This document shows positions 8,576 through 63,025 of a stretch of DNA of 64,000 nucleotides, one piece after another. This DNA comes from Escherichia coli (GTDB lineage: Bacteria; Pseudomonadota; Gammaproteobacteria; Enterobacterales; Enterobacteriaceae), in assembly GCF_002854065.1 (NCBI RefSeq), contig NZ_CP024147.1; one strand, written 5' to 3'. The notes beneath the pieces are model-generated. The model made no database searches, was not told the DNA's origin, and worked only from the letters and a program-made list of their open reading frames with translations. The first letter of the stretch is position 1. The number at the start of each line of letters is the position of its first letter. The position numbers and the translations under genes are program-made.

Positions 8576-8649
8576 ATATAATCCTTATAAAAAATATAAT
8601 GTTTAACTCGTCATATTGCTTATAAAAAATCCCCGGTAATGACTCCAAC

Positions 8650-21379: not shown

Positions 21380-21576
21380 GCAAAAACTCCGTAATGAAGA
21401 TTAAAAGCGCTCATAACTCATCTGTCGGCCAGAAGGCGCGCCTCTGAATTATCCGACGGACAAACCGGGAACAGTGTAATTTCCCGGCAGGAGCGAAAAA
21501 ATTGAAAGGCGCATCTTACTCTTTTCGCTTTCAAAAAAAGAGTGGTCATCGCGTTAACACACCGCCCTGAGATGAA

Positions 21577-23332: not shown

Positions 23333-23534
23333 ACCCTCAGGAGTTTCAAATAGCTGTTCTTTTTACGGAAATACTTATGAACTGGCTGGAATAAAGTGCA
23401 AGAAAATGTGACTACCCTAGCATTTTTATCTGACATGATCTGTTGCCACTCGCTGCCAAATTGTGGCGCTAAAGCTGATTAGCACGGTGATATTTGATAC
23501 TCTGGCAGACAGCAGAAATAACGGATTTAACCTA

Positions 23535-23588
23535 ATGATGAATGACGGTAAGCAACAATCTACCTTTTTGTTTCACGATTACGCGCAA
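23535..23588 (+). pseudogene. sbcB: Orphaned native 5' end of sbcB (MMNDGKQQSTFLFHDY...) left at prophage attL; reads into phage DNA and stops after 17 codons
   Basis: Sequence atgatgaatgacggtaagcaacaatctacctttttgtttcacgattacg; shares the 13-bp core tttcacgattacg with the start of intact sbcB at 38811-38823. Confidence 0.7.
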
Positions 23589-23637
23589 CACCCCTGAGAA
23601 CCGCCATGAATAAGGGTTTCATGATTTGTGATTTTAG

Positions 23638-23660
23638 TTTGGTACGCAATTTGGTACACA
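23638..23660. repeat. Direct repeats TTTGGTAC(G/A)C x2, putative integrase arm-type sites (attL side)
   Basis: tttggtacgc 23638-23647 and tttggtacac 23651-23660, same orientation as repeats near int. Confidence 0.5.
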
Positions 23661-24081
23661 ACACAATTTTCACTTCAGCGGGTAGTCATCAAACTCACCA
23701 TAACGAGCATCGTTGATGATGTATGTGATCACCACAAATATCACATCTGGACTAGTTCCGTCTTCATGCGCAGGTATCTGTTCACGCCTCCCTTTCTGCA
23801 AATCCTAAAGATGAGATTTTGGGGTTTTGGGATATCTTTTTATCCTCAGTTCTCTATCCATTCTACAAAGCAGTAATGAACCATCACTATGTGATAGTGA
23901 GGCATCCGCTACATTAAGCGCAGAGAAATGATGCAGTGGTGGTCGGACTGGATTGATGAAAAGGTGTGATCGGTTAGCGCAAGACGAATCACCACCCTCG
24001 CCAGTTTTGAGTTGTTTTGCGCTAATTTTTTACCCCACCTCTGCCCCATCAAAAGAAAACCCGCTCTAGCGGGTTCATGTC

Positions 24082-25152
24082 TCAGGCCTCTTTGCCCTTC
24101 TCTATCGCTGAGGGCTTGTCAGGAAGCAATGCGCTTATACGTCCCTTAAGGTACTTGTACATTCTGACGTCGATGAATGCTGCGTATAAATACGCTAGCA
24201 CTATCGAGACAGCAATCATTTTTACCGCCCCCATAAATGGATCTCCCTCAACAATACCGGTAATCATCACAGGGAAATGGAGAAGGTACAGAGGGAAGCT
24301 GATAAACCCTAAAAACTGGACTGGTGCAGAGTAAAGGAACCGTTTAACCAGGGACTCATCATTCATGTAATCGACAGTTAGCAGGGGAAGAAATGCCACC
24401 ATGTAGAAATAATCCATCCTGTTGGTATGCGAAGGTTGAGCATAGAGCCCGGCAAAGCATACAAACAGACACATAGCCAAAAAAACATTCTTTTGAGGTA
24501 GTTTAGTGAAACTCTCGTACCATTTTAATTTTATGATCGAGTACATACCCGATCCCATCAAAAGACATGATGATGCAAAAACAAAATTGTACATCCCGAA
24601 AAGCTCTGGACTACCGAGCCCTCTGGCAGAAACAACAGCCAGATAAATAAATGCCAAAATAGAAATACATAACCTTGAAAGCGGCCCCATTCTCAAGAAC
24701 AGAACTGGAATCAACATGGACGCCCAAAATTCTATGCTGACACTCCACGAAGGTTCATTTATCAAATTGAATGATAATGGGGTAGACCCATGTATAAATG
24801 CTAAATTCGCTACCCATGTCCTGATACTAAATACGTAATCACCTGGCACATAACCACCATTAAGGCTATTTACGTAGTAAATGATTACCATTATCACTGA
24901 TGATATAAAGGTAAGAGGCCACAGTCTTGCCAGTCTATTCAAAAAATATGACGGGATAGACGCCCCATTTCTTACTGAGTGGGTAAGCACAAATCCCGAT
25001 ATGATGAAAAAATATGCAACAGCCAAGTGAGGGCCGTTGAATGGCCCATCATTTTTCCAACCAGTAACAGCATTGATGGCGTGATTTAGGAGCACTGCGC
25101 ATGCAAAAAGGCCGCGCAAACCATCAACAGCATAGAAGCGTTTAATTTCCAT
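24082..25152 (-). CDS. Acyltransferase family 3 membrane protein (OafA/Oac-like); candidate lysogenic-conversion O-acetyltransferase
   Basis: 356-aa multi-pass membrane ORF, N-terminal motif YAVDGLRGLFACAVLLNH typical of acyltransferase-3; AT-rich; sits at prophage end after the tail fibre gene; hairpin terminator 24057-24076. Confidence 0.7.
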   Translation of the reverse strand: MEIKRFYAVDGLRGLFACAVLLNHAINAVTGWKNDGPFNGPHLAVAYFFIISGFVLTHSVRNGASIPSYFLNRLARLWPLTFISSVIMVIIYYVNSLNGGYVPGDYVFSIRTWVANLAFIHGSTPLSFNLINEPSWSVSIEFWASMLIPVLFLRMGPLSRLCISILAFIYLAVVSARGLGSPELFGMYNFVFASSCLLMGSGMYSIIKLKWYESFTKLPQKNVFLAMCLFVCFAGLYAQPSHTNRMDYFYMVAFLPLLTVDYMNDESLVKRFLYSAPVQFLGFISFPLYLLHFPVMITGIVEGDPFMGAVKMIAVSIVLAYLYAAFIDVRMYKYLKGRISALLPDKPSAIEKGKEA

Positions 25153-25271
25153 AACAATTTATTTAAAAAAAGAAAAATTATACTAGAAATATATCATCAA
25201 CATCTATGCCATTGATGATTAAGTGATGGTTGTCACGGTTTTGTGTTTCTGGCTGGAATGCTGGCAGTGCT

Positions 25272-25460
25272 TTACTCGCTTGACTCAGGATCGGTGAATA
25301 CTCCATCTTCATAAATCCATCCAATTCTGCATGGTATTCCGTCTATTTTAACAACCTGATAATCATCAAAAATATGCCCCTCACCATCCCATATAACAAT
25401 ATTTACAACTATTCCATCTGTAATTAATGCATATCTCATGCAAACTCCTCCACAAGACAA
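25272..25460 (-). CDS. Small hypothetical phage protein downstream of tail fibre gene (possible tail-fibre assembly remnant)
   Basis: 62-aa ORF only; position where a tail-fibre chaperone is expected. Confidence 0.3.
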
Positions 25461-26362
25461 ATACCATCAGCACCTTCACCACCATAAAAACGCGTGGAGA
25501 AGACCTGCGTGTCATATGCGCCAGCGCCGCCACCGCCAGGGACTAATGCTTTCGCAATTCTCGGTGAATATACAGTACACTGCCCCGCTCTTCGGCTGCC
25601 ACCCCAAAAGCTTGAACCGCCGTACCCATTAAGGAACCTAGTATTATTTTGGCCATCTCCGCCATCTCCGCCGGCTAGATTTACATCACCACCAGACCCG
25701 GCAACTCCAACGCCGCCTGATGCATATACAGTGGAAGCAGTGGACGGGTTTCCGCCTGTGGCAACCATCCCACTAAATGTTGAGTTACCGCCTTTTGTTG
25801 CCTCAGTTCCGCCAGCACCGATAACCACGGCAAAGTTTGTGATGTCAGCAATATTGAACCATTTGATACCTGTAGCGCCTGCAGCCCCCCCAGCACCGGA
25901 AAAGTTATCGGTTGGGGAACCACTATTAAAAGCGCCACCTCCGCCACCACCCCCTCCCGTTAGAGTTACTTTGATGCGCTTCGTCAGCGGGTTTAGCGTT
26001 ACTGTTTTTGATGAGGTGATCCACTGCTCGGCAATCTTCCTACCTACGTATCCGTTGGTATCTCCCAAATCAAGGTTTGCGAGAGCCGTTTTCACCGTGC
26101 CATCCGATTTGATATCGCCAAACGGATTCTTGCGGCTTAACAGCAGAGCACGAAGCGCGGTAAGCAACTGGTCGTGCCGCGCCTTCTCCAGACTGGCACC
26201 AGATGCCTCAACAACGCTACAAAGTTCTTCCTGCAACATGTCAAAGTAGTCATCATCCAGATCGGTGGCAGGCGTGCCAGTCTGGGGGTTACCACGGGTA
26301 AAACCGTTCTTACCCGCGCCGAACTTATCCTTCTGCGCGGTTTTCGTGTCTATACGATGCAT
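25436..26362 (-). CDS. Phage tail fibre protein, glycine-rich
   Basis: 308-aa ORF with poly-Gly/GGxGG repeats and conserved tail-fibre N-terminus; follows baseplate genes. Confidence 0.65.
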
Positions 26363-26365
26363 GGA

Positions 26366-26950
26366 TTACTCCGGATATTTAAAAATTACGTAGGTATGCG
26401 ACGGGCAGAGTTTGTTAAGCACACACTCGACAACGGTGTCGCCCCAGATACGCAGTGCGGAATCACAGGGATCGCCACATGTCATCCAGGTGGTGTTGGT
26501 GGTGGTTGGCATGTTGACATGCCAGTAATACCGCCATTCCGGCGCATTCACCGCGTCAGTACAGGCCGATGAGCAGGTGAACGTGCTTTTGTCGTATCGC
26601 GTGATGGTGGCATCTGGTCTGCCCAGGGCAGCAAGCTGTGCAAGATAAAAATCCTCGTTGATGCCGCCCGCCAGGTTAACCTTCGCATCCAGCCGTTGCT
26701 GACGCTGGCGAAGGGTCTGCGTTCCCGCCGGAATACATTCATCCGGCAGACCGCACAGACGCTCCCAGCGGTTTATCAGTTCAGTGGTGGTGCGCGGATC
26801 CAGCTCCCGCATCAGGGCATCCGCACGCTGATGAACACGGGTTAATGACGGTGCCGCACCGGCAATCGCCGGATCGCTGGCTGACCACGCCGGACCGGGC
26901 GGCAACAGTGCCGATAACAGGCGGATGTAATCATCGTTTGTCACGTCCAT
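26366..26950 (-). CDS. Phage tail protein (Mu gp48 / YmfQ-like, DUF2313)
   Basis: 194-aa ORF in tail module between baseplate J and tail fibre. Confidence 0.5.
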
Positions 26951-27999
26951 GAAATCGTCCCCAGTACCGCCAGTTCGTTTTTCGCAATGGAGATATTGTC
27001 CACCGGTGCAAGCAACTGATGGCTGTATTCCCCGTTCGCACCGGAAATCGCCTCACTGATACGCGACACCTTCAGTTCTCCCTGCGGATAACCATCACGC
27101 AGCAGGAACGAACGCAACTCCGCGGTGATGGCAGCCCGTATTTCCGGTGTATCCGGCGTCACGCGGATATGAAAATCCACCGTATGTGCCACCGGCCTGA
27201 ACACATACAAGTCAGAACCTGCCACCGGGGCCAGTGGCCCGATATGTTGTATTGCCGCCGTTTCCGTTGATTCTTCCGGAATGGGATTAATCAGGTCACT
27301 GCTGGCAATCATCACACCGACAGTTCCCGTTCCCATCCAGTGACGGTATGTCCATGCGCGGGTAATGCCGGGCACTTCTTTAGCCCAGACGACATAGTCC
27401 CCGTCAGCCCCGCCCTGCGGCGTCCAGTAATACCGCTCAATGACGCGGGCGCGCCACGTTTCCAGATCTTCAGTATCGAATCCGCCAGTCAGGGTATCTG
27501 CAACACCGGAAGACGGCAGACCATTCACCGGCGTGACTAGGATTAATGCCGTACCGTCGTCAGCGTTACCGACCGCGCCTGCATTTGAGCAAGTGATCGG
27601 CACACGCAGGACACCACCGGAGCTGGTTGCATCGGCAGTTGCCGTGTACTGAACCAGGTCATCGCGCTGAATCACGCTCCCGGCAGTCACCTTCAGGCCA
27701 TCGCTGACACCTTCCCAGCGCATATACCCGCTGGCAGCCGTGGCCCCCTTGCGCGGACACCGTTTCATCGCAGCATGTCGCGCCAGCCAGGACTCATCGC
27801 ACAGGTCAGGCAGCATATTCATTGCCAGATAATCGATGTACCCGTAGACCGTATGCAGCGCCGCCGCATACACCTTTGCCCGCACGTCTTCATCCATGCG
27901 CCGGAGCGTGTTGCTGACGTCCAGCCTGGCGAATAAATCGTTACGGAGCATACTGATATTTTCTGCCAGCGTCGGGCGCTGAAATTCACTGTCCGCCAT
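26941..27999 (-). CDS. Baseplate J-like protein (Mu gp47-like)
   Basis: 352-aa ORF, position and size in Mu-like baseplate module. Confidence 0.55.
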
Positions 28000-28414
28000 G
28001 CGTTATCGCACTCCACAGATCATCAAAAGAAATCATTACCGGTCCGTCACGACGCCAGAGAGTGATACTGTTACCCAGTTCATTAATCCCGGTACGGCGG
28101 ATATCCAGATCAATACGGGACACCACGCCGTCATCAATCATCCATTGCAGGCATTCGCGGATATATCCCCTTACCGTCTGCACCAGCTGATTGGTCAGTT
28201 TGCTGCGCTGAAGCAGCCACAGTCGGGAGCCGTAACGGTCATTCTGTACCGCAGGCCAGGTATCCCCCCACCATCCCATCGGGACGTCGGCGTTGTCATC
28301 AGGCTCCGCCCGCCGCCAGGTAAACAGGGAAATCACCACGGCGCGGGTCAGCGGATCCAGCGGTGCGCTGGCGCAGGTGCGTTTACCGTTCACCGTCAGC
28401 CACAGTTCCATCAT
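27986..28414 (-). CDS. Phage baseplate protein (Mu gp46-like)
   Basis: 142-aa ORF overlapping neighbours, as in Mu-like baseplate operons. Confidence 0.5.
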   Translation of the reverse strand: MMELWLTVNGKRTCASAPLDPLTRAVVISLFTWRRAEPDDNADVPMGWWGDTWPAVQNDRYGSRLWLLQRSKLTNQLVQTVRGYIRECLQWMIDDGVVSRIDLDIRRTGINELGNSITLWRRDGPVMISFDDLWSAITHGGQ

Positions 28415-28959
28415 GCCTCCATCGCTTTATCAGGTTTGTCGGTGTTACTGCCCTGACCGTTCTCTCTGTGACGATGCCCGTTATAGGCAAGCCGCATCGC
28501 TGACATGGTGGTGCCGCCGGAGTCGCACAGGTCTTTCACCTGTCCGGTCACTTCCAGGTCCATTTCAAAACGTGCTTTAGGTGAATTGCGAAACGTGATC
28601 GTTTTACCTGCACCGTCCACCACGATCCCCTCCCGGGTCAGCGTCACGGACTGCCCCTGATCGTCATAGACAGCCACCTCACCCGTCTGCAGCCCTTTCA
28701 GGCGGTAGCGCCGGTCCGACACCGTAACAACCACCGCATGAGAACGGTCGCCATCCGGAAACAACACCACCGCTTCCGCACCGCTGTTTGCCCTTGCGGT
28801 AAAACCGTAGGGTTCAAGATGTTCAACCCCGGCTTTGGGTTCACCGGCAATCAGGGACACATCCACGGTCTGACATTTCGTGGCGGCACTGATGCTTTTC
28901 ACCACGGCCCGCCCAATCAGGCCGAGGAGTTGTCGCTGCATGGCTTCAATCGTCCTCAT
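28411..28959 (-). CDS. Baseplate assembly protein V / spike (Mu gp45-like)
   Basis: 182-aa ORF; position in module. Confidence 0.5.
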   Translation of the reverse strand: MRTIEAMQRQLLGLIGRAVVKSISAATKCQTVDVSLIAGEPKAGVEHLEPYGFTARANSGAEAVVLFPDGDRSHAVVVTVSDRRYRLKGLQTGEVAVYDDQGQSVTLTREGIVVDGAGKTITFRNSPKARFEMDLEVTGQVKDLCDSGGTTMSAMRLAYNGHRHRENGQGSNTDKPDKAMEA

Positions 28960-30038
28960 CAGAACGGGTCCTCCTGTACTCTGGCTTTTTTCTTTTTCCG
29001 CGCGCCGGGGGCTTCGGGTTCAGGCAGATAAGCATCAGGTGGGCCGACACGGATTTCCGTCAGGGTGCCGTTCTGGTCCTGAGTAAACGTGACTTCCGAA
29101 ACAAGCAGTTCGGTATTGTCGAAACCACAGACCGGATCAAAGACAATCACCCGCTGGTTGGGCTGCCACAGCGTACCGTTACACTGTCGCCAGCCCTGCA
29201 CCACATAGGTGGTTTCATCCGTCCGCGCCGCCCGTTGTCTGGCTTCAAAGTCCGCACGGGCAATACAGCCTGCCCCCGTAGCCTGCCCTGTCTGCCTGAT
29301 ATACATCGGACGGTAACGGGCAATAAATGCGTCCTCTGTGCGGGCCCGCAGCGCGGTGGTGGTGGCCTCACCGAAATCATCGTCGTTTCCGGCACGCTGC
29401 CCCGCCACCTGGTAAACAGAAAACCGCTCCCGGATACTCTTCTCCGTATCGCAGGAAAGGATGTTTTCCCCGAGTACCAGCGCAGTATGTGCCCGAGTTG
29501 AGCCAATACCGCCAATCACCAGCCTGCCGTGCGGGTCGTCGTAAGCCAGTGCCTGCTGCTGACCGAGTATTTTGTTGATTACCTCAATCACCGTTTCACC
29601 GTGATCAGGCTGAACATCAGGAATAACACCCGACGGCGCACCGCTGTTCACCACCTCAATGCCGAAAGGCGCAGCAAGCGCCTGCGCAATCTGCACCAGC
29701 GAGCGTCCGTTAAACTGTGTCGGTTCGGCTGCACAGTCAATCAGGTCAGCCGTCAGACTACGTCCGACAATACCGGTGCTGACCGAACGGGAATCGTAAC
29801 GAACGGGCGTCGCCTCCACCCAGCCGGTGATCACCAGCTCATCACCAATCAGCACTTCCACTTTTGAACCGTTTTTAATGCGCGGCTGAAGCGTGGTGAT
29901 ACCCTCATCTCCCGGCCACTGGCGGGTGATCTCCACACTGAAATCCCGCGCCAGCCGTTCAATACCGGCACCGATGCGCACCGATGTCCAGCCATTCCAC
30001 TCCCGGCCATTTACCCGTAGCGTGACATTGTCGTTCAT
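28959..30038 (-). CDS. Phage tail protein (Mu gp44 / P2 gpD-like)
   Basis: 359-aa ORF; position between DNA-circulation and baseplate genes. Confidence 0.5.
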   Translation of the reverse strand: MNDNVTLRVNGREWNGWTSVRIGAGIERLARDFSVEITRQWPGDEGITTLQPRIKNGSKVEVLIGDELVITGWVEATPVRYDSRSVSTGIVGRSLTADLIDCAAEPTQFNGRSLVQIAQALAAPFGIEVVNSGAPSGVIPDVQPDHGETVIEVINKILGQQQALAYDDPHGRLVIGGIGSTRAHTALVLGENILSCDTEKSIRERFSVYQVAGQRAGNDDDFGEATTTALRARTEDAFIARYRPMYIRQTGQATGAGCIARADFEARQRAARTDETTYVVQGWRQCNGTLWQPNQRVIVFDPVCGFDNTELLVSEVTFTQDQNGTLTEIRVGPPDAYLPEPEAPGARKKKKARVQEDPF

Positions 30039-31375
30039 TGCACTGGCACCTTCAGAGGGATCACCGGCACAAAGCCGGGATGCGTAATGGCATTACGCCG
30101 GATAATGTCCGCGTCACGCGCCGCGTTATCAAACCAGGTCGCCGCCAGCACCAGCGCGGGTAAAACCTCATCCGGTGTGCGCTGAATGATCCGTGCAGAC
30201 TGTTCAAGGCGCGTGTTGATATCCGCATTCAGATCTGCTTTCACCCGGCGCAGCGCCAGAAACAGCGCATCACTGGTTGTACGGGACAACTCCTTATCAA
30301 TTGCCGTATTCAGTGTGTCGCGAATGTCAGTCAGTTCTTCCCACGTCGGCAGGTCAACCGTGTTTTTCACCGCCGGTGCATTGTTCAGTGCCGGATGCGT
30401 GACGGAAGGCCAGCCAGTGCTCTGCGCGGGTGTTGTTGCCTGCCCCACTGCGGCATTCTGCATCACCGCGGAAGTTGTTGGCGCAGGCAATCGGGTGACG
30501 GCATACGCCGCTTCGCTGATTGCGGTCGTACGAAGGGTGCTGGCAACCACGTTACGCTGCTGCGTCGCCGTGGCGGTGGTTTTACTGTCCGTTTTCCAGA
30601 CGCCGCGCGGTTGCAGATCGCTGCCGAGGCTGACACCGGAAAGCGTTTTGATCATGGTGACCAGGTCGCTGGCGTTACCATAAAGGCGTTTCCCGGTACG
30701 CCACATTTTCTGCACCTGCTCAACGAAATTTTTGCCTGACGATGGCGGCGGCAGAAGTACCGAGATATCCCCCTGCAACAGCCTGGCGGCATCCGATACG
30801 GCAGAATCCACCACTTTCATCGCATCAGAAACATACCCCAGCATTATGCTGGCATTACCGATAACGTCGTTCTGCACGAAATCCGCAACACCATCGATAC
30901 TGAAACCGCTGAAGCTGTCACTGATGCAGTCATCCAGTGCAGAACAGGATGACATCAGCGTCTGCGCCGTCGCCGCACCTGATGTGGGGTAAGAGAGTTC
31001 TCCTGCTTCGACAAACTTCAGGTCAAAGCGGACAATACGCCCTTCACTTTTCGATGTGCTGACCCGAACTTCCCCGTCAACACAGACTTTCAGCTCACCA
31101 TATGTCGGGTGGACAAGCGTGCCTGGACCGGGTTTATTCAGCGCGTCAATCAGGCGATCGCGCTGGTCAAAGCAGTCATCTCCCACCACATAAGCTGTGA
31201 TGGACGGGCGGAAAGTGATTTTCCCCAGGTCTTCGGTATAGGGTTTGTCGCGGTTTGGGTATTCATGCGTTTCAACCCGACGTCCTACCGGGGCCCCTTC
31301 ATCTTCTACCTTGAACGGAACGCCGCGAAACGACGCTTCAACCAGTCTGTCTTTCCACGCCATTGTCTGCACCAA
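30035..31375 (-). CDS. Phage DNA circulation protein (Mu gp43 / N-like)
   Basis: 446-aa ORF; the expected upstream tape-measure/sheath/head genes are missing, replaced by IS1. Confidence 0.5.
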   Translation of the reverse strand: MVQTMAWKDRLVEASFRGVPFKVEDEGAPVGRRVETHEYPNRDKPYTEDLGKITFRPSITAYVVGDDCFDQRDRLIDALNKPGPGTLVHPTYGELKVCVDGEVRVSTSKSEGRIVRFDLKFVEAGELSYPTSGAATAQTLMSSCSALDDCISDSFSGFSIDGVADFVQNDVIGNASIMLGYVSDAMKVVDSAVSDAARLLQGDISVLLPPPSSGKNFVEQVQKMWRTGKRLYGNASDLVTMIKTLSGVSLGSDLQPRGVWKTDSKTTATATQQRNVVASTLRTTAISEAAYAVTRLPAPTTSAVMQNAAVGQATTPAQSTGWPSVTHPALNNAPAVKNTVDLPTWEELTDIRDTLNTAIDKELSRTTSDALFLALRRVKADLNADINTRLEQSARIIQRTPDEVLPALVLAATWFDNAARDADIIRRNAITHPGFVPVIPLKVPVQ

Positions 31376-31534
31376 TATGATTTGTTATAAGCTACTCTGT
31401 TTCAGACGCTTCTTTCGAAGCGCCAGAGAACATTTACCTTTAAGGAGAGGTATAAATGGAAATGTTTTTGCCGTTAATACTGGGTTTGTTGCTAGCCGTT
31501 TTCATAGGACGGTGGGCTTGGTAATGACTCCAAC

Positions 31535-32038
31535 TTATTGATAGTGTTTTATGTTCAGATAATGCCCGATGACTTTGTCATGCAGCTCCACCGATTTTGA
31601 GAACGACAGCGACTTCCGTCCCAGCCGTGCCAGGTGCTGCCTCAGATTCAGGTTATGCCGCTCAATTCGCTGCGTATATCGCTTGCTGATTACGTGCAGC
31701 TTTCCCTTCAGGCGGGATTCATACAGCGGCCAGCCATCCGTCATCCATATCACCACGTCAAAGGGTGACAGCAGGCTCATAAGACGCCCCAGCGTCGCCA
31801 TAGTGCGTTCACCGAATACGTGCGCAACAACCGTCTTCCGGAGCCTGTCATACGCATAAAACAGCCAGCGCTGGCGCGATTTAGCCCCGACATAGCCCCA
31901 CTGTTCGTCCATTTCCGCGCAGACGATGACGTCACTGCCCGGCTGTATGCGCGAGGTTACCGACTGCGGCCTGAGTTTTTTAAGTGACGTAAAATCGTGT
32001 TGAGGCCAACGCCCATAATGCGGGCAGTTGCCCGGCAT
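31535..32038 (-). CDS. insB: IS1 transposase InsB
   Basis: 167-aa ORF. Confidence 0.9.
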
Positions 32039-32232
32039 CCAACGCCATTCATGGCCATATCAATGATTTTCTGGTGCGTACCGGGTTGAGAAGCGGTGTA
32101 AGTGAACTGCAGTTGCCATGTTTTACGGCAGTGAGAGCAGAGATAGCGCTGATGTCCGGCGGTGCTTTTGCCGTTACGCACCACCCCGTCAGTAGCTGAA
32201 CAGGAGGGACAGCTGATAGAAACAGAAGCCAC
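31957..32232 (-). CDS. insA: IS1 InsA
   Basis: 91-aa ORF. Confidence 0.9.
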
Positions 32233-32327
32233 TGGAGCACCTCAAAAACACCATCATACACTAAATCAGTAAGTTGGCAGCATCACCCGTCAGATGAAAG
32301 AATTAATCGGTAACGAAGGAGATATTC

Positions 32328-35766: not shown

Positions 35767-35958
35767 ATGTCTTGTCCAAAATGCGGTTCTGGAAATATTG
35801 CAAAAGAAAAAACAATGCGTGGATGGTCTGATGATTATGTGTGCTGCGATTGCGGATACAACGACTCTAAAGACGCATTTGGAGAGCGTGGTAAAAACGA
35901 GTTTGTCAAAATTAATAAAGAACGCGAAGGCGGTGATGCTGCCAACTTACTGATTTAG
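35767..35958 (+). pseudogene. Phage zinc-ribbon protein with C-terminus altered by IS1 insertion (native end ...EREGNEKS reconstructed across the IS)
   Basis: CxxC...CxxC motif (MSCPKCGSG...YVCCDCGY); GGAGGT RBS 6 nt upstream of ATG 35767; reading frame runs into the IS1 terminal repeat. Confidence 0.55.
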
Positions 35959-35986
35959 TGTATGATGGTGTTTTTGAGGTGCTCCA

Positions 35987-36262
35987 GTGGCTTCTGTTTC
36001 TATCAGCTGTCCCTCCTGTTCAGCTACTGACGGGGTGGTGCGTAACGGCAAAAGCACTGCCGGACATCAGCGCTATCTCTGCTCTCACTGCCGTAAAACA
36101 TGGCAACTGCAGTTCACTTACACCGCTTCTCAACCCGGTACGCACCAGAAAATCATTGATATGGCCATGAATGGCGTTGGATGCCGGGCAACCGCCCGCA
36201 TTATGGGCGTTGGCCTCAACACGATTTTCCGCCATTTAAAAAACTCAGGCCGCAGTCGGTAA
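35987..36262 (+). CDS. insA: IS1 InsA
   Basis: 91-aa ORF. Confidence 0.9.
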
Positions 36263-36684
36263 CCTCGCGCATACAGCCGGGCAGTGACGTCATCGTCTGC
36301 GCGGAAATGGACGAACAGTGGGGATACGTCGGGGCTAAATCGCGCCAGCGCTGGCTGTTTTACGCGTATGACAGGCTCCGGAAGACGGTTGTTGCGCACG
36401 TATTCGGTGAACGCACTATGGCGACGCTGGGGCGTCTTATGAGCCTGCTGTCACCCTTTGACGTGGTGATATGGATGACGGATGGCTGGCCGCTGTATGA
36501 ATCCCGCCTGAAGGGAAAGCTGCACGTAATCAGCAAGCGATATACGCAGCGAATTGAGCGGCATAACCTGAATCTGAGGCAGCACTTGGCACGGCTGGGA
36601 CGGAAGTCGCTGTCGTTCTCAAAATCGGTGGAGCTGCATGACAAAGTCATCGGGCATTATCTGAACATAAAACACTATCAATAA
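36181..36684 (+). CDS. insB: IS1 transposase InsB
   Basis: 167-aa ORF. Confidence 0.9.
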
Positions 36685-36823
36685 GTTGGAGTCATTACCC
36701 GCGAAGGCAACGAAAAAAGCTAATTTATTTATTCATATATGAAAACAATGTAATAAATATTCGAATTGAAGAATTGAAAGAACACCAAGCCGCCTGATGG
36801 CGGTTTTTTATTGGAGACAAGAA

Positions 36824-37245: not shown

Positions 37246-37437
37246 ATGACCGATACCAGCCTGATTCCTGAGAAAGAAGTGATGAACAAGCTCGGTGTTT
37301 CATCACGTCAGACAATCTGGAACTATACCAAACGGCACGGATTTCCGAAGCCAGTCAGAACCCACCCCAAATCATACCTTCGTGAAGCTGTTGAAGGGTG
37401 GATTCTTAACGGTGGCGTTAATCAGAAATGCTCCTGA
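37246..37437 (+). CDS. alpA: AlpA-family phage transcriptional regulator / excisionase-like
   Basis: 63-aa ORF with HTH (VSSRQTIWNYTKRHGFPKP), convergent with and adjacent to integrase. Confidence 0.7.
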   Translation: MTDTSLIPEKEVMNKLGVSSRQTIWNYTKRHGFPKPVRTHPKSYLREAVEGWILNGGVNQKCS

Positions 37438-38596
37438 TGTGCCAGAACAATTTATCAGCGTGAAGCTCATACGCTTTGCGCTGAGCCTCTATCCAGTCGT
37501 GTTTATTGTATACGGACATTATCCCGCCAAGTTCATGACCGAGCATTCGCTCAGTAACATGAGGCTCGACATTCATCTCGGACAGACGTGTAACAAGCGT
37601 TCTTCTGAAATCGTGTGTTCGCCAGTAACCTAGATCCATCCCTCCCCTTATTCTATTTACGAATCGGTTGGCTGCAGCGATGCTGATCGGTTTGTTTATG
37701 TCTTCTCCAGGGAAAAGAACATCATTGTACGTTGTCATGGCCTTTTCGAGGAAAGGCTTAATTTGTTCGAAGATTGGACGGCGGATAACATTACCCATCT
37801 TGCTATGCTCTTTCGGTACGGTCCATACGTTTTCCAGCAGGTCAAATTCTGTCTTTTTTGCCAGCCTAAGCTCTGAGAGCCTCGCCCCCCACAGCATAAG
37901 CATCTGATGAAGTAGCTTATTTGACGTAGACGCACGGCTTCTTTCAATAGCAAGCCAAATCTTAGCCAGTTCGTGATACGACAGTACCCGATCCCCTACC
38001 TCAGCGCGGGAGCCGAAGTCCCTTGGTTGGATGCTCATAATTGCGCAACTATCTATCAACTGACGCCGCATGCACCAACTTATTGCTGATCTTAGTTGAC
38101 TTAGCACCTGCCTTGCTCGGCGTGGATTATCTCTTTCTTCTTCGGTAAGCAGGTCAACCCATTGCTTAACCGTGATAGAAGATGCCGGACGATTAGGAAA
38201 GGCGTCATGCATGCGCTTCATAACCGTTGATCGGTAAAGTGCCTGGGTCTTTTCTCTGAGAGTTGTAGAGACGTAGTTGTCGAACCAGTAGTCGAGACAC
38301 TGGGCGACCGTCATGGAGTTCTCCACCTTCTCTTCAAAATAAGTGCGTGGATCCGTTCCTGAGAAATAGAGCTTTCGCAAGTCAGCAGTGATCTGTCTGG
38401 CATCCTTCAAAGACAGGGATGGGTATCGACCAAGCCCAAGTCGATTAGGCTTGCCATGCCAGCGATAGCGGTACTGGAACTGGATGACCCCCTTCGGTGA
38501 AATTCGTACGCTGAGGCCATCGGCATCAGCCACTTCTTGTGGGCCCGAATATGGTTTACCATAAATACTACGCAGTTTTGTGTCGCTTATAGCCAT
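37418..38596 (-). CDS. int: Tyrosine-type phage integrase (P4-type, N-terminal arm-binding domain)
   Basis: 392-aa ORF with integrase catalytic region (HDFRRT...LGH...Y); adjacent to attR. Confidence 0.85.
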   Translation of the reverse strand: MAISDTKLRSIYGKPYSGPQEVADADGLSVRISPKGVIQFQYRYRWHGKPNRLGLGRYPSLSLKDARQITADLRKLYFSGTDPRTYFEEKVENSMTVAQCLDYWFDNYVSTTLREKTQALYRSTVMKRMHDAFPNRPASSITVKQWVDLLTEEERDNPRRARQVLSQLRSAISWCMRRQLIDSCAIMSIQPRDFGSRAEVGDRVLSYHELAKIWLAIERSRASTSNKLLHQMLMLWGARLSELRLAKKTEFDLLENVWTVPKEHSKMGNVIRRPIFEQIKPFLEKAMTTYNDVLFPGEDINKPISIAAANRFVNRIRGGMDLGYWRTHDFRRTLVTRLSEMNVEPHVTERMLGHELGGIMSVYNKHDWIEAQRKAYELHADKLFWHIRSISD

Positions 38597-38777: not shown

Positions 38778-40202
38778 ATGACAGACGCAGATAAACAACC
38801 TACCTTCCTCTTTCACGATTACGAAACCTTTGGCACGCACCCCGCGTTAGATCGCCCTGCACAGTTCGCAGCCATTCGCACCGATAGCGAATTCAATGTC
38901 ATCGGAGAACCCGAAGTCTTTTACTGCAAGCCCGCTGATGACTATTTACCCCAGCCAGGAGCAGTATTAATTACCGGTATTACCCCGCAGGAAGCACGGG
39001 CGAAAGGAGAAAACGAAGCCGCGTTTGCCGCCCGTATTCACTTGCTTTTTACCGTACCGAAGACCTGTATTCTGGGCTACAACAATGTGCGTTTCGACGA
39101 CGAAGTCACACGCAACATTTTTTATCGTAATTTCTACGATCCTTACGCCTGGAGCTGGCAAAACCGCAATTCGCGCTGGGATCTGCTTGACGTGATGCGC
39201 GCCTGCTATGCCCTGCGCCCGGACGGCATCAACTGGCCGGAAAACGACGACGGTCTGCCGAGCTTCCGCCTGGAACATCTCACCAAGGCCAACGGTATTG
39301 AACACAGTAACGCCCATGATGCGATGGCCGACGTTTACGCGACCATCGCCATGGCGAAGCTGGTGAAGGCCCAACAGCCAAAGCTGTTTGATTATCTGTA
39401 TGCCTACCGGGGCAAAAACAAGCTGATGACGCTGATTGACGTCCCGCAGATGAAGCCACTGGTGCATGTCTCGGGAATGTTTGGCGCCTGGCGCGGAAAC
39501 ACCAGCTGGATTGCGCCGCTGGCCTGGCATCCGGATAACCGTAATGCGGTGATCATGGTCGACCTGGCGGGCGACATCGCCCCGCTGCTCGAGCTGGATG
39601 CCGATACGCTGCGCGAGCGCCTGTATACGCCGAAGGCCGAGCTCGGCGACAGTTCGCCGGTGCCGATTAAGCTGGTGCATCTGAATAAGTGCCCGGTGCT
39701 GGCGCAGGCCAATACCCTGCGCCCAGAAGACGCTGACCGTTTAGGCATTAACCGACAGCACTGCCTGGATAACCTGAAACTGCTGCGCGATAACCCGCAG
39801 GTGCGCGAGAAGGTGGTGGCGATTTTTGCTGAAGCCGAGCCGTTTGTCGCATCGGACAACGTCGACGCCCAGCTTTATAACGGTTTCTTTAGCGACGCCG
39901 ACCGCGCGGCGATGAAAATCGTGCTGGAGACCGAGCCGCGCAATCTGCCGGCGCTGGACATTACCTTCGCCGACCCGCGTATTGAGAAGCTGCTGTTTAA
40001 CTTCCGCGCGCGCAACTTCCCCGGCACGCTGGATGAAAACGAGCAACAGCGCTGGCTGGAACACCGTCGGCAGATCTTCACCCCGGAATTTTTACAGGCC
40101 TACGCCCAGCAACTGGAGATGTTGTACGGTCAGTATGAGGGGAATAACGAGAAGCTATCGCTGCTGAAGGCGCTGTATCAGTACGTGCAGGAGATTGTTT
40201 AA
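38778..40202 (+). CDS. sbcB: Exodeoxyribonuclease I, with phage-supplied promoter and first ~11 codons (MTDADKQPTFLF...)
   Basis: 474-aa ORF with DnaQ-like exonuclease N-terminus (FLFHDYETFG); hairpin terminator 40211-40241 downstream. Confidence 0.9.
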   Translation: MTDADKQPTFLFHDYETFGTHPALDRPAQFAAIRTDSEFNVIGEPEVFYCKPADDYLPQPGAVLITGITPQEARAKGENEAAFAARIHLLFTVPKTCILGYNNVRFDDEVTRNIFYRNFYDPYAWSWQNRNSRWDLLDVMRACYALRPDGINWPENDDGLPSFRLEHLTKANGIEHSNAHDAMADVYATIAMAKLVKAQQPKLFDYLYAYRGKNKLMTLIDVPQMKPLVHVSGMFGAWRGNTSWIAPLAWHPDNRNAVIMVDLAGDIAPLLELDADTLRERLYTPKAELGDSSPVPIKLVHLNKCPVLAQANTLRPEDADRLGINRQHCLDNLKLLRDNPQVREKVVAIFAEAEPFVASDNVDAQLYNGFFSDADRAAMKIVLETEPRNLPALDITFADPRIEKLLFNFRARNFPGTLDENEQQRWLEHRRQIFTPEFLQAYAQQLEMLYGQYEGNNEKLSLLKALYQYVQEIV

Positions 40203-41494: not shown

Positions 41495-41560
41495 AACGAA
41501 TCCCAGGTGATGCTGCCAACTTACTGATTTAGTGTATGATGGTGTTTTTGAGGTGCTCCA

Positions 41561-55417: not shown

Positions 55418-56563
55418 TTAGAGCACTTCTTGCATTGTGAGTTTATTATAGATTTGAACGGTTTTTCGTATGACAACGGTAGATGAATACTTTTCCTCTA
55501 CTCGCTTTCTGGCATTCTGCCCCATCTTAGTGCGCTCAAGAGGATCGCTAATAAGGATACCAAGCTTCTGAGAAAATAGGTTCACATTTCCTTTAGGCAC
55601 AAGGAAACCGTTATAACCGTCAAGTATTAAACTCCCACAACCACCAGTGTCAAAACTTATAACAGGACGACCGATTGCACCGGCTTCTAAAAGAATTCGA
55701 GGAATACCTTCAGAGTAAACAGATGGCAAAGCGACTATATCCACACTTTCAATTAATTCCTTGATATCGCTACGCTTGCCCAGCCAAATGATATCACCGG
55801 AGTTATGCCACTCTTCTATCTGAGTTATACTTATAGCGTCGCGATCATTGTCAACAAGAATGCCCGCAACTAATATCTCAAATTCGATGCCTTGTAATTT
55901 TAAAATTCTACTAGCATCAATTAACGTGCGTAGCCCTTTACTCCAAAGCATGCGACTTGCAAAAAAAACTTTAACCTTGGTATTATTAGGTGGTGTACTA
56001 TAACAAAAATAGTCTATATTAATACCTGCGCCATCAATAACTTCAGTTTTATTTTTTGGAATATCTAATAGTTCAATTATTTTTTGCTGATCTTTTTTAT
56101 GTTCAAAGAGGATACAACAATCAATATTTAAGAAAAATCTTCTATACATATTAGCAATTAAGAACTTAACCATTTGGTAAATGACCTTATTGCTTTCAAA
56201 AACTCTACCTAACCCAACAAAACTATAGACCATTTTTTTGTTTCGGATTCTGGCCCATAAACAACTAATCACACCAGGTTTAATCGTGACGCTATGCACA
56301 ATATCAGGATTAATTTTATTCAATGTTCTAAATGAGCGAGTTATATCGCAAAAGAAAACAACAGGATTGATATTTTGCTCTTTTATTTTACTATCAATAC
56401 ACTTAAATCCTAAACTAGTAAAGCGATCCAGAATAGACTTGTCAGAATAATTCGCAAAAATATAGACATCATATCCTGCTTCCAGAACTGATAAGGCACG
56501 ATCTAACCAATGTAATTCGAAATACCAAGCGGAGTTCACAAAATAACATATCTTTATTTTCAT
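55418..56563 (-). CDS. Glycosyltransferase family 1 (GT4-type), O-antigen cluster
   Basis: 381-aa ORF with C-terminal GT1 motif (...EGIPRILLEAGAIGRPVISFDTGG...); AT-rich. Confidence 0.7.
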   Translation of the reverse strand: MKIKICYFVNSAWYFELHWLDRALSVLEAGYDVYIFANYSDKSILDRFTSLGFKCIDSKIKEQNINPVVFFCDITRSFRTLNKINPDIVHSVTIKPGVISCLWARIRNKKMVYSFVGLGRVFESNKVIYQMVKFLIANMYRRFFLNIDCCILFEHKKDQQKIIELLDIPKNKTEVIDGAGINIDYFCYSTPPNNTKVKVFFASRMLWSKGLRTLIDASRILKLQGIEFEILVAGILVDNDRDAISITQIEEWHNSGDIIWLGKRSDIKELIESVDIVALPSVYSEGIPRILLEAGAIGRPVISFDTGGCGSLILDGYNGFLVPKGNVNLFSQKLGILISDPLERTKMGQNARKRVEEKYSSTVVIRKTVQIYNKLTMQEVL

Positions 56564-56718
56564 ATTTAAAACTCACATCTCCTTCCTTAAGCTATTATCC
56601 TGTTAAAATTTAAAACCTCAGCACGTCATCTTATACTTCGAAGAAAATATCAGTTTTAAATAAAGCAAAACAAATCATCCCTGATTTGTTTGTGAATCAA
56701 AATAAAGACTATTACAAA

Positions 56719-58878
56719 TCACCAACACACAAGCATGTATTCATACACCAGATCACGCTCAGGCTGGAGGTGAACAAACTTGAATTGATAACCCATATTG
56801 AGATTTTCAACAAATTTCTTACATTCAAAAATTTGCTCTGGCTGCAACCACAAGTGATAAACAGAAATCAGCAACACGGGCTTGTGTTTTTTGATTGTCT
56901 CGATTGCACCATTAAGGGCATTAATCTCATAGCCTTCAATATCGAATTTAATCAAACCAACACGATCTTCAAACGTCAGACTATCAATAGTGACCGATTG
57001 AACTTTAATGTCAGACTGCTCGTCTTCAACAACACATGAGCCTACTCCATCATCCCCAACTTTCATCATCGAAAGTTCGCCAGATACATTGCTGACAGCA
57101 ACATTTAAGGGTTTAATAGTATCATTTAAATATTGATGATTACGCTCAAGATTCCGAACCATACAGTTATAATTATCAGCTACAGGTTCTAAGGCAAGTA
57201 CTTCTTTAAATCCAAAGCTAGCGAACATGATAGCTGTATCACCAACCCAAGCCCCACAATCTATAGCAACAGAGCCTTTGAATTCTTCAGTGAATCGGCC
57301 TGGAAGATACTTCAAGCCAGCTTTGAAATAGTTGGTTGCTAGAGTAACCGGTAATTCAGATAGATCAAGATGCTGAATTAATTCTTTTTCGTGACGTAAG
57401 ATTGAATCAATATTTGACAATATAACTCTATCTTCATCCGTAAATAATGTTAAAGATAAAGGTAATTCCAACTCAATGCCTTGATGTTCAAAGTATGGCA
57501 GTAATTCATAAAAACCAAATAATTTCCTCTCATTTTGAAGGCTAAATTCATCAAGGCCGCGTTTGAATTCTTCACGTAGTTTAGAGATCCGAGAGGAATT
57601 TACCTTCATGTAATAATAAAACTGGTTAGTAGGCGCTACTTTTATTAGTACAGAACCATTTTTATTCTGTCCTGAAATGACATCGACTTTATCAGTAAGT
57701 TCTTTCGACATCTTCAAAAATGAAGAATCTAACTCCTCCCGAAAATGTTTGGAAAGTAAAGATGAGGAGGAATCCATTTTTGATGAAACAGCATTAATAA
57801 TTGGTTCAATTATTAATTTGTTAGTAATAAAACGTAGTTTGGAAACGACTTTCTTTTTAATCCTGTTTCTTGTCTGAACTGTTTTTATAATCCTGTTACT
57901 CATCAACTCATTATAAATTGGAAGAACATGATTATAATAATAGTCATTTGTATCGGAGGAAAATGAAACATTAGAAGTTACTGGCTGGAAACCTTCTTCT
58001 TTAGCCTGTTCAAAAACAGCAATAGCAGCTTCCTGATATGACTTCAATCCATCGCCTCTCAAACGAGAAGAATGGAAAACTAAATCAAAAAGATGGTGAA
58101 AATAAAAATGATTCAGGTATTTTTGAAACGTTCCAACACTAAGAAGGTGTTTTTTTATAATATCATAATTATTAAAAGATATTAATGCCTTGTCAGCACT
58201 AGCACTGGATGAGCCCACGTTCATGACCCTGTAGTTATAAACAGGCACATTCAAAAGAGTTATCTTTTCTACAGAGGCATAGGTGATGAATTTAAAGGGC
58301 ATATCCTGATATGAAGCCCCAGGACTTTCATAGAAGCGAATATGATTTTCTTCAAGAAAATCTCTTCTATACAAGCCAGTCCAGATTGATGATTCAAGCA
58401 AGAAAAGCTCAACTGAATTTTCTGGTACAATTTCTGCCAAGTTATCATTATCAAATGTACATAAATGCGCAAGGGACTGAGTATTGATTACAACTTCATT
58501 ACTTATTCTATTGAAACTTGCTTTAATGACCGGATTCGGGATTTTATTATAAGCGTCTATTAGACGCTCAAACATATCAAGCTGAACCCAATCGTCTGTT
58601 TCGATGATAGAAATAAAATCGCCGCTTGCAACATCTAGCCCAGAGTTGATTGCAGCTCCGTAACCTGCGTTTTTTTTATGGATAGCAATAATTCTTGTAT
58701 CGCTCGAAGCGTATCGATCAATAATCTGAGGGCAAGCATCAGGGCTACCGTCATTGACTATTATTATTTCCAGATTCTTATATGTTTGAGACAGAACACT
58801 GTCGAGACATTGCTCTAAATAAACTTCGCCGCCGTATACAGGTAAAATAACGGAAATTTTAAAGATATCATCACCCAT
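56719..58878 (-). CDS. Fused glycosyltransferase family 2 (N-terminal) - FkbM-family methyltransferase (C-terminal)
   Basis: 719-aa ORF; N-terminus ISVILPVYGGEVYLEQCLDSVLSQTY...IVNDGS...DDW (GT2); C-terminus AIDCGAWVGDTAIMFA...FDIEGYEINAL (FkbM-type SAM methyltransferase). Confidence 0.65.
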   Translation of the reverse strand: MGDDIFKISVILPVYGGEVYLEQCLDSVLSQTYKNLEIIIVNDGSPDACPQIIDRYASSDTRIIAIHKKNAGYGAAINSGLDVASGDFISIIETDDWVQLDMFERLIDAYNKIPNPVIKASFNRISNEVVINTQSLAHLCTFDNDNLAEIVPENSVELFLLESSIWTGLYRRDFLEENHIRFYESPGASYQDMPFKFITYASVEKITLLNVPVYNYRVMNVGSSSASADKALISFNNYDIIKKHLLSVGTFQKYLNHFYFHHLFDLVFHSSRLRGDGLKSYQEAAIAVFEQAKEEGFQPVTSNVSFSSDTNDYYYNHVLPIYNELMSNRIIKTVQTRNRIKKKVVSKLRFITNKLIIEPIINAVSSKMDSSSSLLSKHFREELDSSFLKMSKELTDKVDVISGQNKNGSVLIKVAPTNQFYYYMKVNSSRISKLREEFKRGLDEFSLQNERKLFGFYELLPYFEHQGIELELPLSLTLFTDEDRVILSNIDSILRHEKELIQHLDLSELPVTLATNYFKAGLKYLPGRFTEEFKGSVAIDCGAWVGDTAIMFASFGFKEVLALEPVADNYNCMVRNLERNHQYLNDTIKPLNVAVSNVSGELSMMKVGDDGVGSCVVEDEQSDIKVQSVTIDSLTFEDRVGLIKFDIEGYEINALNGAIETIKKHKPVLLISVYHLWLQPEQIFECKKFVENLNMGYQFKFVHLQPERDLVYEYMLVCW

Positions 58879-60199
58879 TGTCTTTCAAAACCTTTCGCAA
58901 AGTGGATTGGAAATTATAGCGCTGATTAAAGTTGGCAAAGACATTTCGACTATGAGTAGCCATGTTAATGAGCTCATCTTTTTTAAGCGATGTAATGAAC
59001 TCAGCACACTTTTGCGCAGATTCGATCTGATGGTACGCTTCTGTCGACTCAATCCCTTCCATAGCAGCTTTAGTTGAAACTAATGGAACACCATAAGAAA
59101 GCGCCTCCAGACATTTAACTTTCAACCCTGAAAGTAATTCATCTGGATTGATAATTACATCGCAGGAATGGTAGAACTTATCAAGGCTCTCACAAAAACC
59201 GAGGATATTAACAAAACCAGGGTACTGTCTACCTTCAAGAGCTCCGCAAATTGTTCCTGAAATATCGAGTCTTACATTATGATCAAGTTTACTTAAGCTA
59301 TCGATAAAATTGTTGATCGCAACGACATTTGGATAGTGCCCAGAGGCCATAAAGCCAACAACGATCTTTTTATTGGATGTTGGGACATAATCAATAAAGT
59401 TTACGTCCAGAATAGGTGGCTGAACAATGACTTGGGAACTAACATTCTCCCTGAAGTAACGGCCTTCTGCTTCTTGAATAGCAAATATATAATTAGCTCT
59501 TGATAACCCAATGGTTTCTTCTTTCTTCGATGTAGAGAAATAGAATTTATCTTGTGAAATACCAATTTTTGCCATTCGAGTGTTCCTCTTAGCAAAAACA
59601 TCGTGAGTATCGATCACTGAGACTGTATTAGGTTTAAGGTATAAACACAATTTTGACAGGAAGACATAATTAACAATTGCAATCTGATAATTATTCATCG
59701 CAGAAAGTGCAGCAACAAATTGACATATTTCATCATCAAGCCAATCGTCAATTTTATTTCCATCAGGAATTATTTGCTGATTGACATCGTGTCTTAGAGT
59801 GCCGAACTTTCCGTTCCGACATTTTATATTATAAGTATAATCCCAATCAACACTATTTGAATCCCAAGGTGAATTATTGAAAACAATAGCGTGAATTGTG
59901 AATCCTAGGGATTTTAATGTCGCAATTTTTGTATCAATATTTTTCCCGACGGCATCATTTCCATAAAAAGGCATAATGACTAGCGCATTTTTATCTGAAC
60001 TTGACTTTAAAATTTTTGGAAAAACAGTAAATTCATTTGCATTTTGTTCAGCATTAACGTTCAACGCTTTAATTAATAACCGCCTTGGGTAATGAGCGTT
60101 AACCATGAGGGCAAATAATTTCCAAAGCTTACGTGCGAGCCTGGTATACCTGAATTTAACAAAAGCTTTCTTCAAAAATCTGGTGATTGTGTTTTTCAT
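58871..60199 (-). CDS. Glycosyltransferase (GT1-like C-terminal domain), O-antigen cluster
   Basis: 442-aa ORF; C-terminal region with E(x7)E-like GT1 features; overlaps neighbours by 4-8 nt. Confidence 0.5.
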   Translation of the reverse strand: MKNTITRFLKKAFVKFRYTRLARKLWKLFALMVNAHYPRRLLIKALNVNAEQNANEFTVFPKILKSSSDKNALVIMPFYGNDAVGKNIDTKIATLKSLGFTIHAIVFNNSPWDSNSVDWDYTYNIKCRNGKFGTLRHDVNQQIIPDGNKIDDWLDDEICQFVAALSAMNNYQIAIVNYVFLSKLCLYLKPNTVSVIDTHDVFAKRNTRMAKIGISQDKFYFSTSKKEETIGLSRANYIFAIQEAEGRYFRENVSSQVIVQPPILDVNFIDYVPTSNKKIVVGFMASGHYPNVVAINNFIDSLSKLDHNVRLDISGTICGALEGRQYPGFVNILGFCESLDKFYHSCDVIINPDELLSGLKVKCLEALSYGVPLVSTKAAMEGIESTEAYHQIESAQKCAEFITSLKKDELINMATHSRNVFANFNQRYNFQSTLRKVLKDNG

Positions 60200-61400: not shown

Positions 61401-61402
61401 AA

Positions 61403-63009: not shown

Positions 63010-63025
63010 AACAAAAGAATCCCTA

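Follow-up and report, generated by a model that had tools for sequence, protein, structure and literature searches.

The AT3 gene and its position in the prophage

Here, we describe an acyltransferase-3 (AT3) gene carried by a defective prophage within a 64,000-nucleotide (nt) stretch of Escherichia coli chromosome, referred to as the window throughout. A first-pass annotation had singled out this gene as a candidate for lysogenic conversion by O-antigen acetylation, possibly acting on the heptose-containing O-antigen encoded in the same window. The chromosome flanking the prophage is 99.9-100% identical to that of strains CUWW06 and 100416, and the gene order is sbmC, dacD, prophage, sbcB, tsuBA, plaP, his operon, ugd, gnd and a low-GC O-antigen cluster. 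The following features were identified at the locus:

23571..23583, no strand assigned: attR core TTTCACGATTACG, a 13-nt direct repeat adjoining a left-behind 5' fragment of sbcB
23584..23965, no strand assigned: conserved attP arm of sbcB-integrating phages, 382 bp, 93-98% nt identity to mEp234, 2851 and Stx phages
24057..24076, minus strand: intrinsic-terminator-like hairpin with T-run, 5 nt past the AT3 stop codon (consensus scan, RNA fold)
24082..25152, minus strand: standalone AT3 gene with ATG start, 356 amino acids (aa), product identical to AUJ96512.1
25177..25182, minus strand: perfect TATAAT hexamer read from the sequence, 24 nt 5' of the AT3 ATG, candidate for the gene's own promoter
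25272..25439, minus strand: open reading frame (ORF) of 55 aa, its ATG overlapping the tail fibre stop codon (ATGA)
25436..26362, minus strand: tail fibre protein of 308 aa with a glycine-rich C-terminal part (Gly_rich_2), matching PHROG tail fibre families
26366..31375, minus strand: Mu/SfV-like baseplate module (PHROGs), with a full-length counterpart in CUWW06
31520..32287, no strand assigned: IS1 at the prophage deletion junction, after the DNA-circularisation/hub gene (PHROG 720 transposase, 768-bp repeat)
35932..36699, no strand assigned: second IS1 inside the prophage (768-bp repeat)
37418..38596, minus strand: sbcB-specific tyrosine integrase, 98.7% aa identity to the Sf101 integrase
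38811..38823, no strand assigned: attL core TTTCACGATTACG, within the 5' end of sbcB

The att cores were located from an alignment of the window with the K-12 dacD-sbcB spacer. This alignment splits, with an overlap, at 23583 and 38794, and TTTCACGATTACG is the longest exact repeat at the split points (23571-23583 and 38811-38823). This core is the reverse complement of the published attP core of Sf101/2851 (PMC4159516), and the integrase is at least 99% identical to those of HK140, mEp234 and several Stx phages. The prophage measures about 15.2 kb. It retains the integrase, some early genes (Erf, SSB) and the baseplate/fibre module (gp48/YmfQ, baseplate J, gp46, gp45, a baseplate protein and the DNA circularisation/hub protein), while head, lysis, sheath and tape-measure genes are missing and two IS1 copies are present internally. 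Within the attP arm lies a degraded S24/UmuD-like (HumD) gene, which the annotation of 100416 lists as a pseudogene of an S24 peptidase.

The AT3 gene lies 499 bp inside the attR core, next to the attP arm and downstream of the Gly_rich_2 fibre gene, i.e., at the end of the prophage where the first-pass annotation had placed it. Once the phage genome is circularised, the gene would have the tail fibre genes on one side and attP-int on the other. The gene thus occupies a moron slot, bounded by att sites and located between receptor-binding tail genes and attP/int.

With a GC content of 42.4%, the AT3 gene is AT-rich in comparison to the neighbouring tail fibre gene (53.0%) and baseplate J (57.7%) as well as to the whole window (48.9%), as had been noted at first pass. 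The terminator that had been attributed to the gene was also recovered. Read from 24076 to 24057, it consists of GAACCCGCTAGAGCGGGTTT followed by TCTTTT, with a GC-rich hairpin and a fold energy of -18.7 kcal/mol (z = -2.0 against shuffles), and it falls within the stretch that is common to the window and an Enterobacter prophage (see below). According to the ORF list, there is no in-frame start further upstream of the ATG. No Dam/OxyR-type switch of the kind found at gtr and oafB was apparent in the 148 nt upstream of the ATG, which contain one GATC, located in the 3' end of the 55-aa ORF. An Rfam search of positions 23300-26400 gave no match.

Comparison with other alleles yielded a dN/dS of 0.08 against the allele of CUWW06/100416 (dS = 0.57) and of 0.06 against that of Enterobacter roggenkampii (dS = 0.078). 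The AT3 gene is under strong purifying selection, and we therefore conclude that it is not a chance ORF.

The AT3 protein is of the Oac type

The assignment to the acyltransferase-3 family was confirmed by profile search, with a near full-length match to Pfam Acyl_transf_3 (PF01757; E = 6.4e-23, residues 7-322 against positions 2-323 of the 326-position model). Matches to PHROG 3333 "O-acetyltransferase" (2e-34) and PHROG 6705 "O-antigen acetylase" (4e-11) were also obtained. NCBIfam offered no meaningful family, the sole match being SucT at 19 bits, and a sequence search against solved structures returned no match.

An AlphaFold2 model built from a 20-sequence alignment (pLDDT 88.5, pTM 0.89) shows ten long helices, and the hydropathy peaks and K/R-rich termini agree with it. 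We therefore predict a topology of 10 transmembrane (TM) helices, the number given by the first-pass annotation. The closest solved structures to the model are cryo-EM structures of human HGSNAT (probability 1.00, TM-score 0.50). The relationship between HGSNAT and AT3 proteins defines the TmAT superfamily (PMC12423673). Matches in the AlphaFold database were AT3 proteins without exception, with TM-scores up to 0.96.

The catalytic motifs described for AT3 proteins are R-X10-H in TM helix 1 (Arg14/His25 in OafB) and RXXR at the cytoplasmic face of TM helix 3 (PMC9833829). Both are found here: R13-x10-H24 does not vary among 20 relatives or in Oac, OacB and WecH, and R73-L-A-R76 is invariant in the subfamily described below and aligns with arginines of Oac and OacB. 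The subfamily (20 relatives) also shares invariant W136 and E141 as well as F48, F49 and G53, which likewise belong to the residues that published work (PMC9833829) assigns to AT3 catalysis; the W and E positions align with those of Oac, OacB and WecH. Aligned with Sf6 Oac, Sf101 OacB and E. coli WecH, the residues D10, R13, H24, F48, F49 and G53 remain invariant.

The gene had initially been described as Oac/OafA type, and only the first half of this designation holds. Salmonella OafA and OafB and Staphylococcus OatA possess the same AT3 domain and conserved residues, but they are AT3-SGNH fusions. The window protein, by contrast, stops at residue 356, soon after TM10; Pfam gave no match to an SGNH domain, and the model contains neither an extra (periplasmic) domain nor an 11th helix. 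It is therefore assigned to the Oac type, which consists of the AT3 domain only, and transfer to the acceptor would have to be performed by this domain itself or by an unlinked partner.

Sf6 Oac (OacA) is likewise a standalone AT3 protein (333 versus 356 aa) with 10 TM helices, cytoplasmic termini and a long periplasmic loop that links TM3 to TM4; R-x10-H and RxxR align, and its gene, which has its own terminator, also directly follows the tail receptor-binding gene. However, the two proteins are only 20% identical over 252 residues (pairwise E = 3e-4) and are therefore not orthologues. The window protein is best explained as an intact, functional, standalone inner-membrane O-acyltransferase of the Oac type.

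Relatives of the AT3 protein follow tail fibre genes in unrelated prophages

Among 5.8 billion protein clusters, we found 78 relatives of the AT3 protein, about 40 of which form a coherent subfamily (at least 31% identity). Each occurrence of the exact protein, AUJ96512.1, is in this prophage context beside dacD. The contexts of other relatives are given below (aa identity, host, genomic context; GT, glycosyltransferase; IS, insertion sequence):

99%, Enterobacter roggenkampii: P22-like prophage, preceded by a Gly_rich_2 fibre gene and that same 55-aa ORF, an IS lying in between
75%, Cedecea: orphan locus by IS3, where the small ORF is kept along with the 3' end of the fibre gene
68%, Yersinia frederiksenii: P2-like prophage, after a tail fibre assembly gene
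48%, E. coli paralogue: another SfV-like prophage at a different site, after a fibre assembly gene
About 44-45%, Acetobacter: adjoining a GT2 gene, not in a recognisable O-antigen cluster
43%, Sodalis: flanked by a tail fibre gene and an integrase
42%, two alleles (P0027 and P0030), Klebsiella-like enterobacterium: last gene of wzm-wzt-GT-glf-GT-GT-GT clusters abutting hisI

Close copies are also present in Kluyvera. In the SfV-like, P22-like, P2-like and Sodalis prophages, the relatives (43-99% identity) are always located after tail fibre or fibre assembly genes, and the tail-fibre-then-AT3 arrangement is repeated in five other prophage or remnant contexts. Searches of other collections added little. 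A tblastn search of 50,697 phage records gave no relative above 29% identity (best matches 24-29%, with Sf6 and Sf101 not among them), and a search of plasmids found none. The scan of species-representative genomes yielded nearly exclusively distant generic AT3 proteins (22-30%), with one Acetobacter relative (44%) besides and no new contexts from Enterobacterales, and the scan of IMG/VR yielded two loci, one of them the Yersinia P2-like prophage. Exact-protein look-ups of three further proteins (P0006, P0031 and P0032) gave no match.

The closest chromosomal relatives are those of the Klebsiella-like host (his operon with 60% GC, 83% identical to E. coli his), which are 42% identical over the full length and have the same invariant residues. 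Their clusters resemble the O52 cluster discussed below in combining an ABC transporter with a Glf-type pyranose-furanose mutase, and this mutase passes the NCBIfam cut-off for UDP-galactopyranose mutase. Unlike the window gene, these are chromosomal cluster genes and not phage morons, and their function is likewise putative. Where subfamily members form part of a polysaccharide locus, this is in every case an O-antigen cluster next to his.

The similarity between the window and the E. roggenkampii prophage is confined to one block, which is common to unrelated prophages:

23919..26040, minus strand: mobile cassette of fibre tip, 55-aa ORF, AT3 gene and terminator

Positions 26040-25272, comprising the C-terminal two-thirds of the fibre and the 55-aa ORF, are 87% identical at the nt level, and positions 25279-23919, comprising the AT3 gene with leader and terminator, are 96.6% identical. 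The remainder of the two prophages is unrelated, and in E. roggenkampii the cassette is split by the IS. The Cedecea orphan locus shows 73% nt identity to the cassette. Since only the cassette matches between otherwise unrelated prophages, we conclude that fibre tip, 55-aa ORF and AT3 gene are co-inherited. The tail fibre gene, identical in related loci, matches Pfam PF21722 there. The 55-aa ORF was called as a gene in all related loci, always between this fibre type and the AT3 gene; it has no Pfam match and its PHROG matches are restricted to families of unknown function. It may encode a small fibre chaperone.

Among known conversion systems, the Shigella phage Sf101 is close in architecture. 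It encodes the O-acetylase OacB beside its tailspike, and shares with the window prophage the integrase (98.7% identity), the 13-bp att core and the target at the 5' end of sbcB, as well as an AT3-only moron that has the receptor-binding tail gene on one side and the int/att region on the other. On the other hand, similarity of the AT3 protein to OacB is confined to the N-terminal 100 residues (28% identity), and OacB 3/4-O-acetylates rhamnose in the S. flexneri O-antigen, which differs from the substrate presumed here. Sf101 is moreover a P22/Sf6-like podovirus with oacB inverted relative to the tailspike gene, whereas the window prophage has a Mu/SfV-like contractile tail and an AT3 gene that is co-oriented with the tail genes, across attP from int.

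The AT3 gene persists through prophage decay

Within one E. coli clone, the same sbcB prophage is found at three stages: about 38 kb and full length in CUWW06, 15 kb in the window, and about 3.5 kb in 100416, where the remnant comprises the AT3 gene, IS1 and an integrase fragment. The AT3 gene is intact in all three. The full-length prophage of CUWW06 encodes an HK97-like head and a Mu-like contractile tail. Phages of the SfV/SfII/SfX type carry three-gene gtrABC glucosylation cassettes between tail fibre genes and attP, and integrate at thrW. They have the same kind of chassis as the CUWW06 prophage and the same cassette slot, but differ in performing three-gene glucosylation instead of one-gene acylation and in using thrW instead of sbcB.

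Despite flanks that are 99.9-100% identical, the AT3 alleles of the window and of CUWW06/100416 differ by a dS of 0.57 (compared were positions 24082-25152 of the window, 20783-21853 of locus L001 from CUWW06, and 10001-11071 of locus L013). The window allele is far nearer to that of E. roggenkampii. This divergence amid near-identical flanks indicates cassette replacement or independent acquisition, with recent transfer between genera.

The AT3 gene co-occurs with an O52-type O-antigen cluster

The O-antigen region at the end of the window contains:

55418..64000, minus strand: partial O52-type O-antigen gene cluster, 100% identical to clusters annotated with O52-family wzm/wzt
56719..58878, minus strand: FkbM-family methyltransferase, 719 aa, within the cluster

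The portion in the window encodes glycosyltransferases, the FkbM methyltransferase and the GDP-6-deoxy-heptose pathway. In the RefSeq annotation, identical clusters comprise O52-family wzm/wzt, the GDP-6-deoxy-heptose pathway, fcf1 and a Glf-type mutase. We examined the whole galF-to-gnd span and found no acetyltransferase in the O52 cluster. The O52 polymer is reported by Feng and colleagues (2004) to be a partially O-acetylated Fucf-6dmanHep disaccharide repeat. Literature searches for the position of O52 acetylation and for a named Klebsiella galactan O-acetylase gave nothing usable and nothing relevant, respectively.

Two of 5,426 complete E. coli genomes carry the AT3 gene (CUWW06 and 100416, 87.5% nt identity). 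Both also carry the O52-type cluster, which only two other genomes of the collection possess. Two observations speak for the link to the heptose O-antigen of the window that was proposed by the first-pass annotation: among these complete E. coli genomes, the gene was found in those with the O52 cluster only, and the cluster itself lacks an acetyltransferase. Overall, we regard a functional link between the AT3 gene and the O52-type heptose O-antigen as plausible on genomic grounds.

O52 contains D-fucofuranose (6-deoxy-galactofuranose). As the nearest chromosomal relatives are located in glf (galactofuranose) clusters, the AT3 subfamily may be specialised in O-antigens that contain furanosides and depend on ABC transporters for their export.

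Proposed function of the AT3 protein

We propose that the AT3 protein acetylates the O-antigen as a form of lysogenic conversion. This is the best reading of the data, with a probability of roughly 0.55. The gene would represent a moron of a temperate phage that integrates in sbcB, placed between the phage's tail-fibre module and attP. A pore mechanism for acetyl-CoA has been modelled for the AT3 domain of OafB (PMC9833829). By analogy, acetyl-CoA would enter the pore from the cytoplasm and be held by R13 and R73xxR76, presenting its thioester near H24 at the periplasmic face, from where the acetyl group could be passed directly, with no SGNH partner domain involved, to a hydroxyl on a sugar of a surface polysaccharide that has been exported. 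The likeliest acceptor would be the O-antigen of lipopolysaccharide (LPS), in this strain the O52-type polymer of the ABC-transporter pathway. Such a polymer is finished in the cytoplasm and exported by Wzm/Wzt, so that modification would take place on the exported chain in the periplasm, either with the chain still attached to undecaprenyl-PP or at the time of its ligation or later. The same periplasmic, post-export constraint applies to the Klebsiella-like clusters with the 42% homologues. Acetylation would then mask the receptor of the co-transferred fibre tip, so that superinfection would be excluded and the O epitope changed. While family, fold, motifs, intactness, purifying selection, prophage position and the contexts of relatives emerge directly from the data, what the enzyme uses as donor and acceptor, when it acts and with which phenotype are inferred.

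This proposal is in line with what is known of phage-borne AT3 proteins. Sf6 OacA, SfII OacD, BTP1 OafB and PhiV10 Oac all acetylate O-antigen, and receptor masking together with a changed epitope is the effect of Sf6 Oac, BTP1 OafB and PhiV10 Oac; OafB, which is prophage-borne on BTP1, blocks its own phage (PMC9558356).

Several observations weigh against the proposal. The substrate is suggested by genomic context, and identity to any of the characterised O-antigen acetylases is only about 20%. All O52 genomes in the collection belong to one clonal lineage, so the association of gene and cluster is confounded by clonality. EC24 and MEI4BO-21 have the O52 cluster with an empty sbcB site, and O52 synthesis therefore does not depend on the AT3 gene. 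E. roggenkampii harbours a protein of 99% identity together with a fibre tip of 87% identity, Kluyvera has close copies, and we know of no resemblance between the O-antigens of these hosts and O52. These cross-genus copies suggest a common receptor other than O-antigen, or a broad acceptor tolerance. With respect to expression, the promoter scan upstream of the AT3 gene made no call because only 3 of 6 positions match at -35, and no clear Shine-Dalgarno sequence was seen upstream of the ATG. The perfect -10 hexamer, paired with a poor -35, is a possible promoter of the gene's own.

More specifically, fibre tip, 55-aa ORF and AT3 gene could form a portable "bind-and-mask" cassette moving across unrelated phage chassis and genera, with the AT3 protein acting, in this E. 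coli lineage, in the periplasm as the O-acetyltransferase of O52. We put this forward tentatively, with a chance well short of even.

A less likely alternative is that the acceptor is another envelope glycan, common to Enterobacterales and serving as the receptor of the linked fibre. Candidates are the enterobacterial common antigen (ECA), the LPS core, colanic acid or another exopolysaccharide, periplasmic glucans and peptidoglycan. The near-identical AT3 protein and related tip in E. roggenkampii and the copies in Kluyvera indicate that the cassette works across genera, which fits a widespread acceptor, and the Acetobacter homologue beside a GT2 gene lies outside a recognisable O-antigen cluster. 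The AT3 family of E. coli, moreover, includes WecH, linked to ECA, and OpgC, linked to periplasmic glucans; the reviewed phage-borne AT3 proteins, however, acetylate O-antigen (PMC9558356). The similarity of our protein to WecH is marginal and that to OpgC is not significant, and for this lack of similarity an OpgC- or WecH-like function was rejected as the primary reading. The restriction of cluster-embedded subfamily members to O-antigen loci next to his also argues for O-antigen as the acceptor.

It is unlikely that the AT3 gene is an inert passenger of a decaying prophage, either silent or lacking a usable acceptor in this host. The state of the prophage (15 kb, defective, with two IS1 copies and without head, lysis and tape-measure genes), the lack of a convincing promoter or ribosome-binding site, and the sister strains EC24 and MEI4BO-21, which do without the gene, would all be expected of such a passenger. 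Against this, neither the reading frame nor any of the catalytic motifs is disrupted, dN/dS is 0.06-0.08, and the gene survives three successive stages of decay, including the 100416 remnant with little other phage DNA.

Least probable is the transfer of a non-acetyl group (e.g., succinyl or propionyl) to a surface or periplasmic glycan: AT3 proteins use varied acyl-CoA donors, OpgC being a succinyl transferase, and nothing in the AT3 sequence fixes the donor, but the characterised AT3 proteins of phages and O-antigen clusters are acetyltransferases (PMC9558356) and PHROG places the protein in an O-acetyltransferase family.

Phage-borne AT3 O-acetylases next to att are a well-established concept, of which this gene is a new, divergent member, and the gain is therefore incremental; mildly novel are the O52 connection and the cassette of fibre tip and AT3 gene. 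If the acetylation of O52 by the AT3 protein is true, the gene behind the non-stoichiometric O-acetylation of the rare E. coli O52 antigen would be identified, and an example would be added of an AT3 protein acting on an O-antigen of the ABC-transporter pathway in E. coli. A cassette combining receptor binding with receptor masking would be documented as moving between phage types and genera, with relevance to in-silico serotyping, O-antigen vaccines and phage host-range prediction.

Additional observations in the window

In the O-antigen region, hisIE is directly followed by ugd with a 56-bp spacer (52413-52470), without wzzB between them. In K-12, wzzB, a gene for a chain-length regulator, is located between hisI and ugd, and its absence here fits an O-antigen of the ABC-transporter pathway. 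The FkbM-family methyltransferase of the cluster has been proposed as the chain-terminating capping enzyme of this pathway (PMC7685785).

Integration has altered sbcB. The first ~16 codons are swapped for phage-derived sequence, giving 474 aa here compared to 475 aa in K-12 (23528-23583 and 38778-40202), and the original 5' fragment was left at attR, beside dacD. The stretch 23584-23965 is kept beside dacD in thousands of E. coli genomes; these att-arm remnants suggest that the sbcB site has often been occupied in the past.

Four 768-bp copies of IS1 with 98.8-99.7% identity were found in the window (8635-9402, 31520-32287, 35932-36699 and 41506-42273), one of them between tsuA and plaP.

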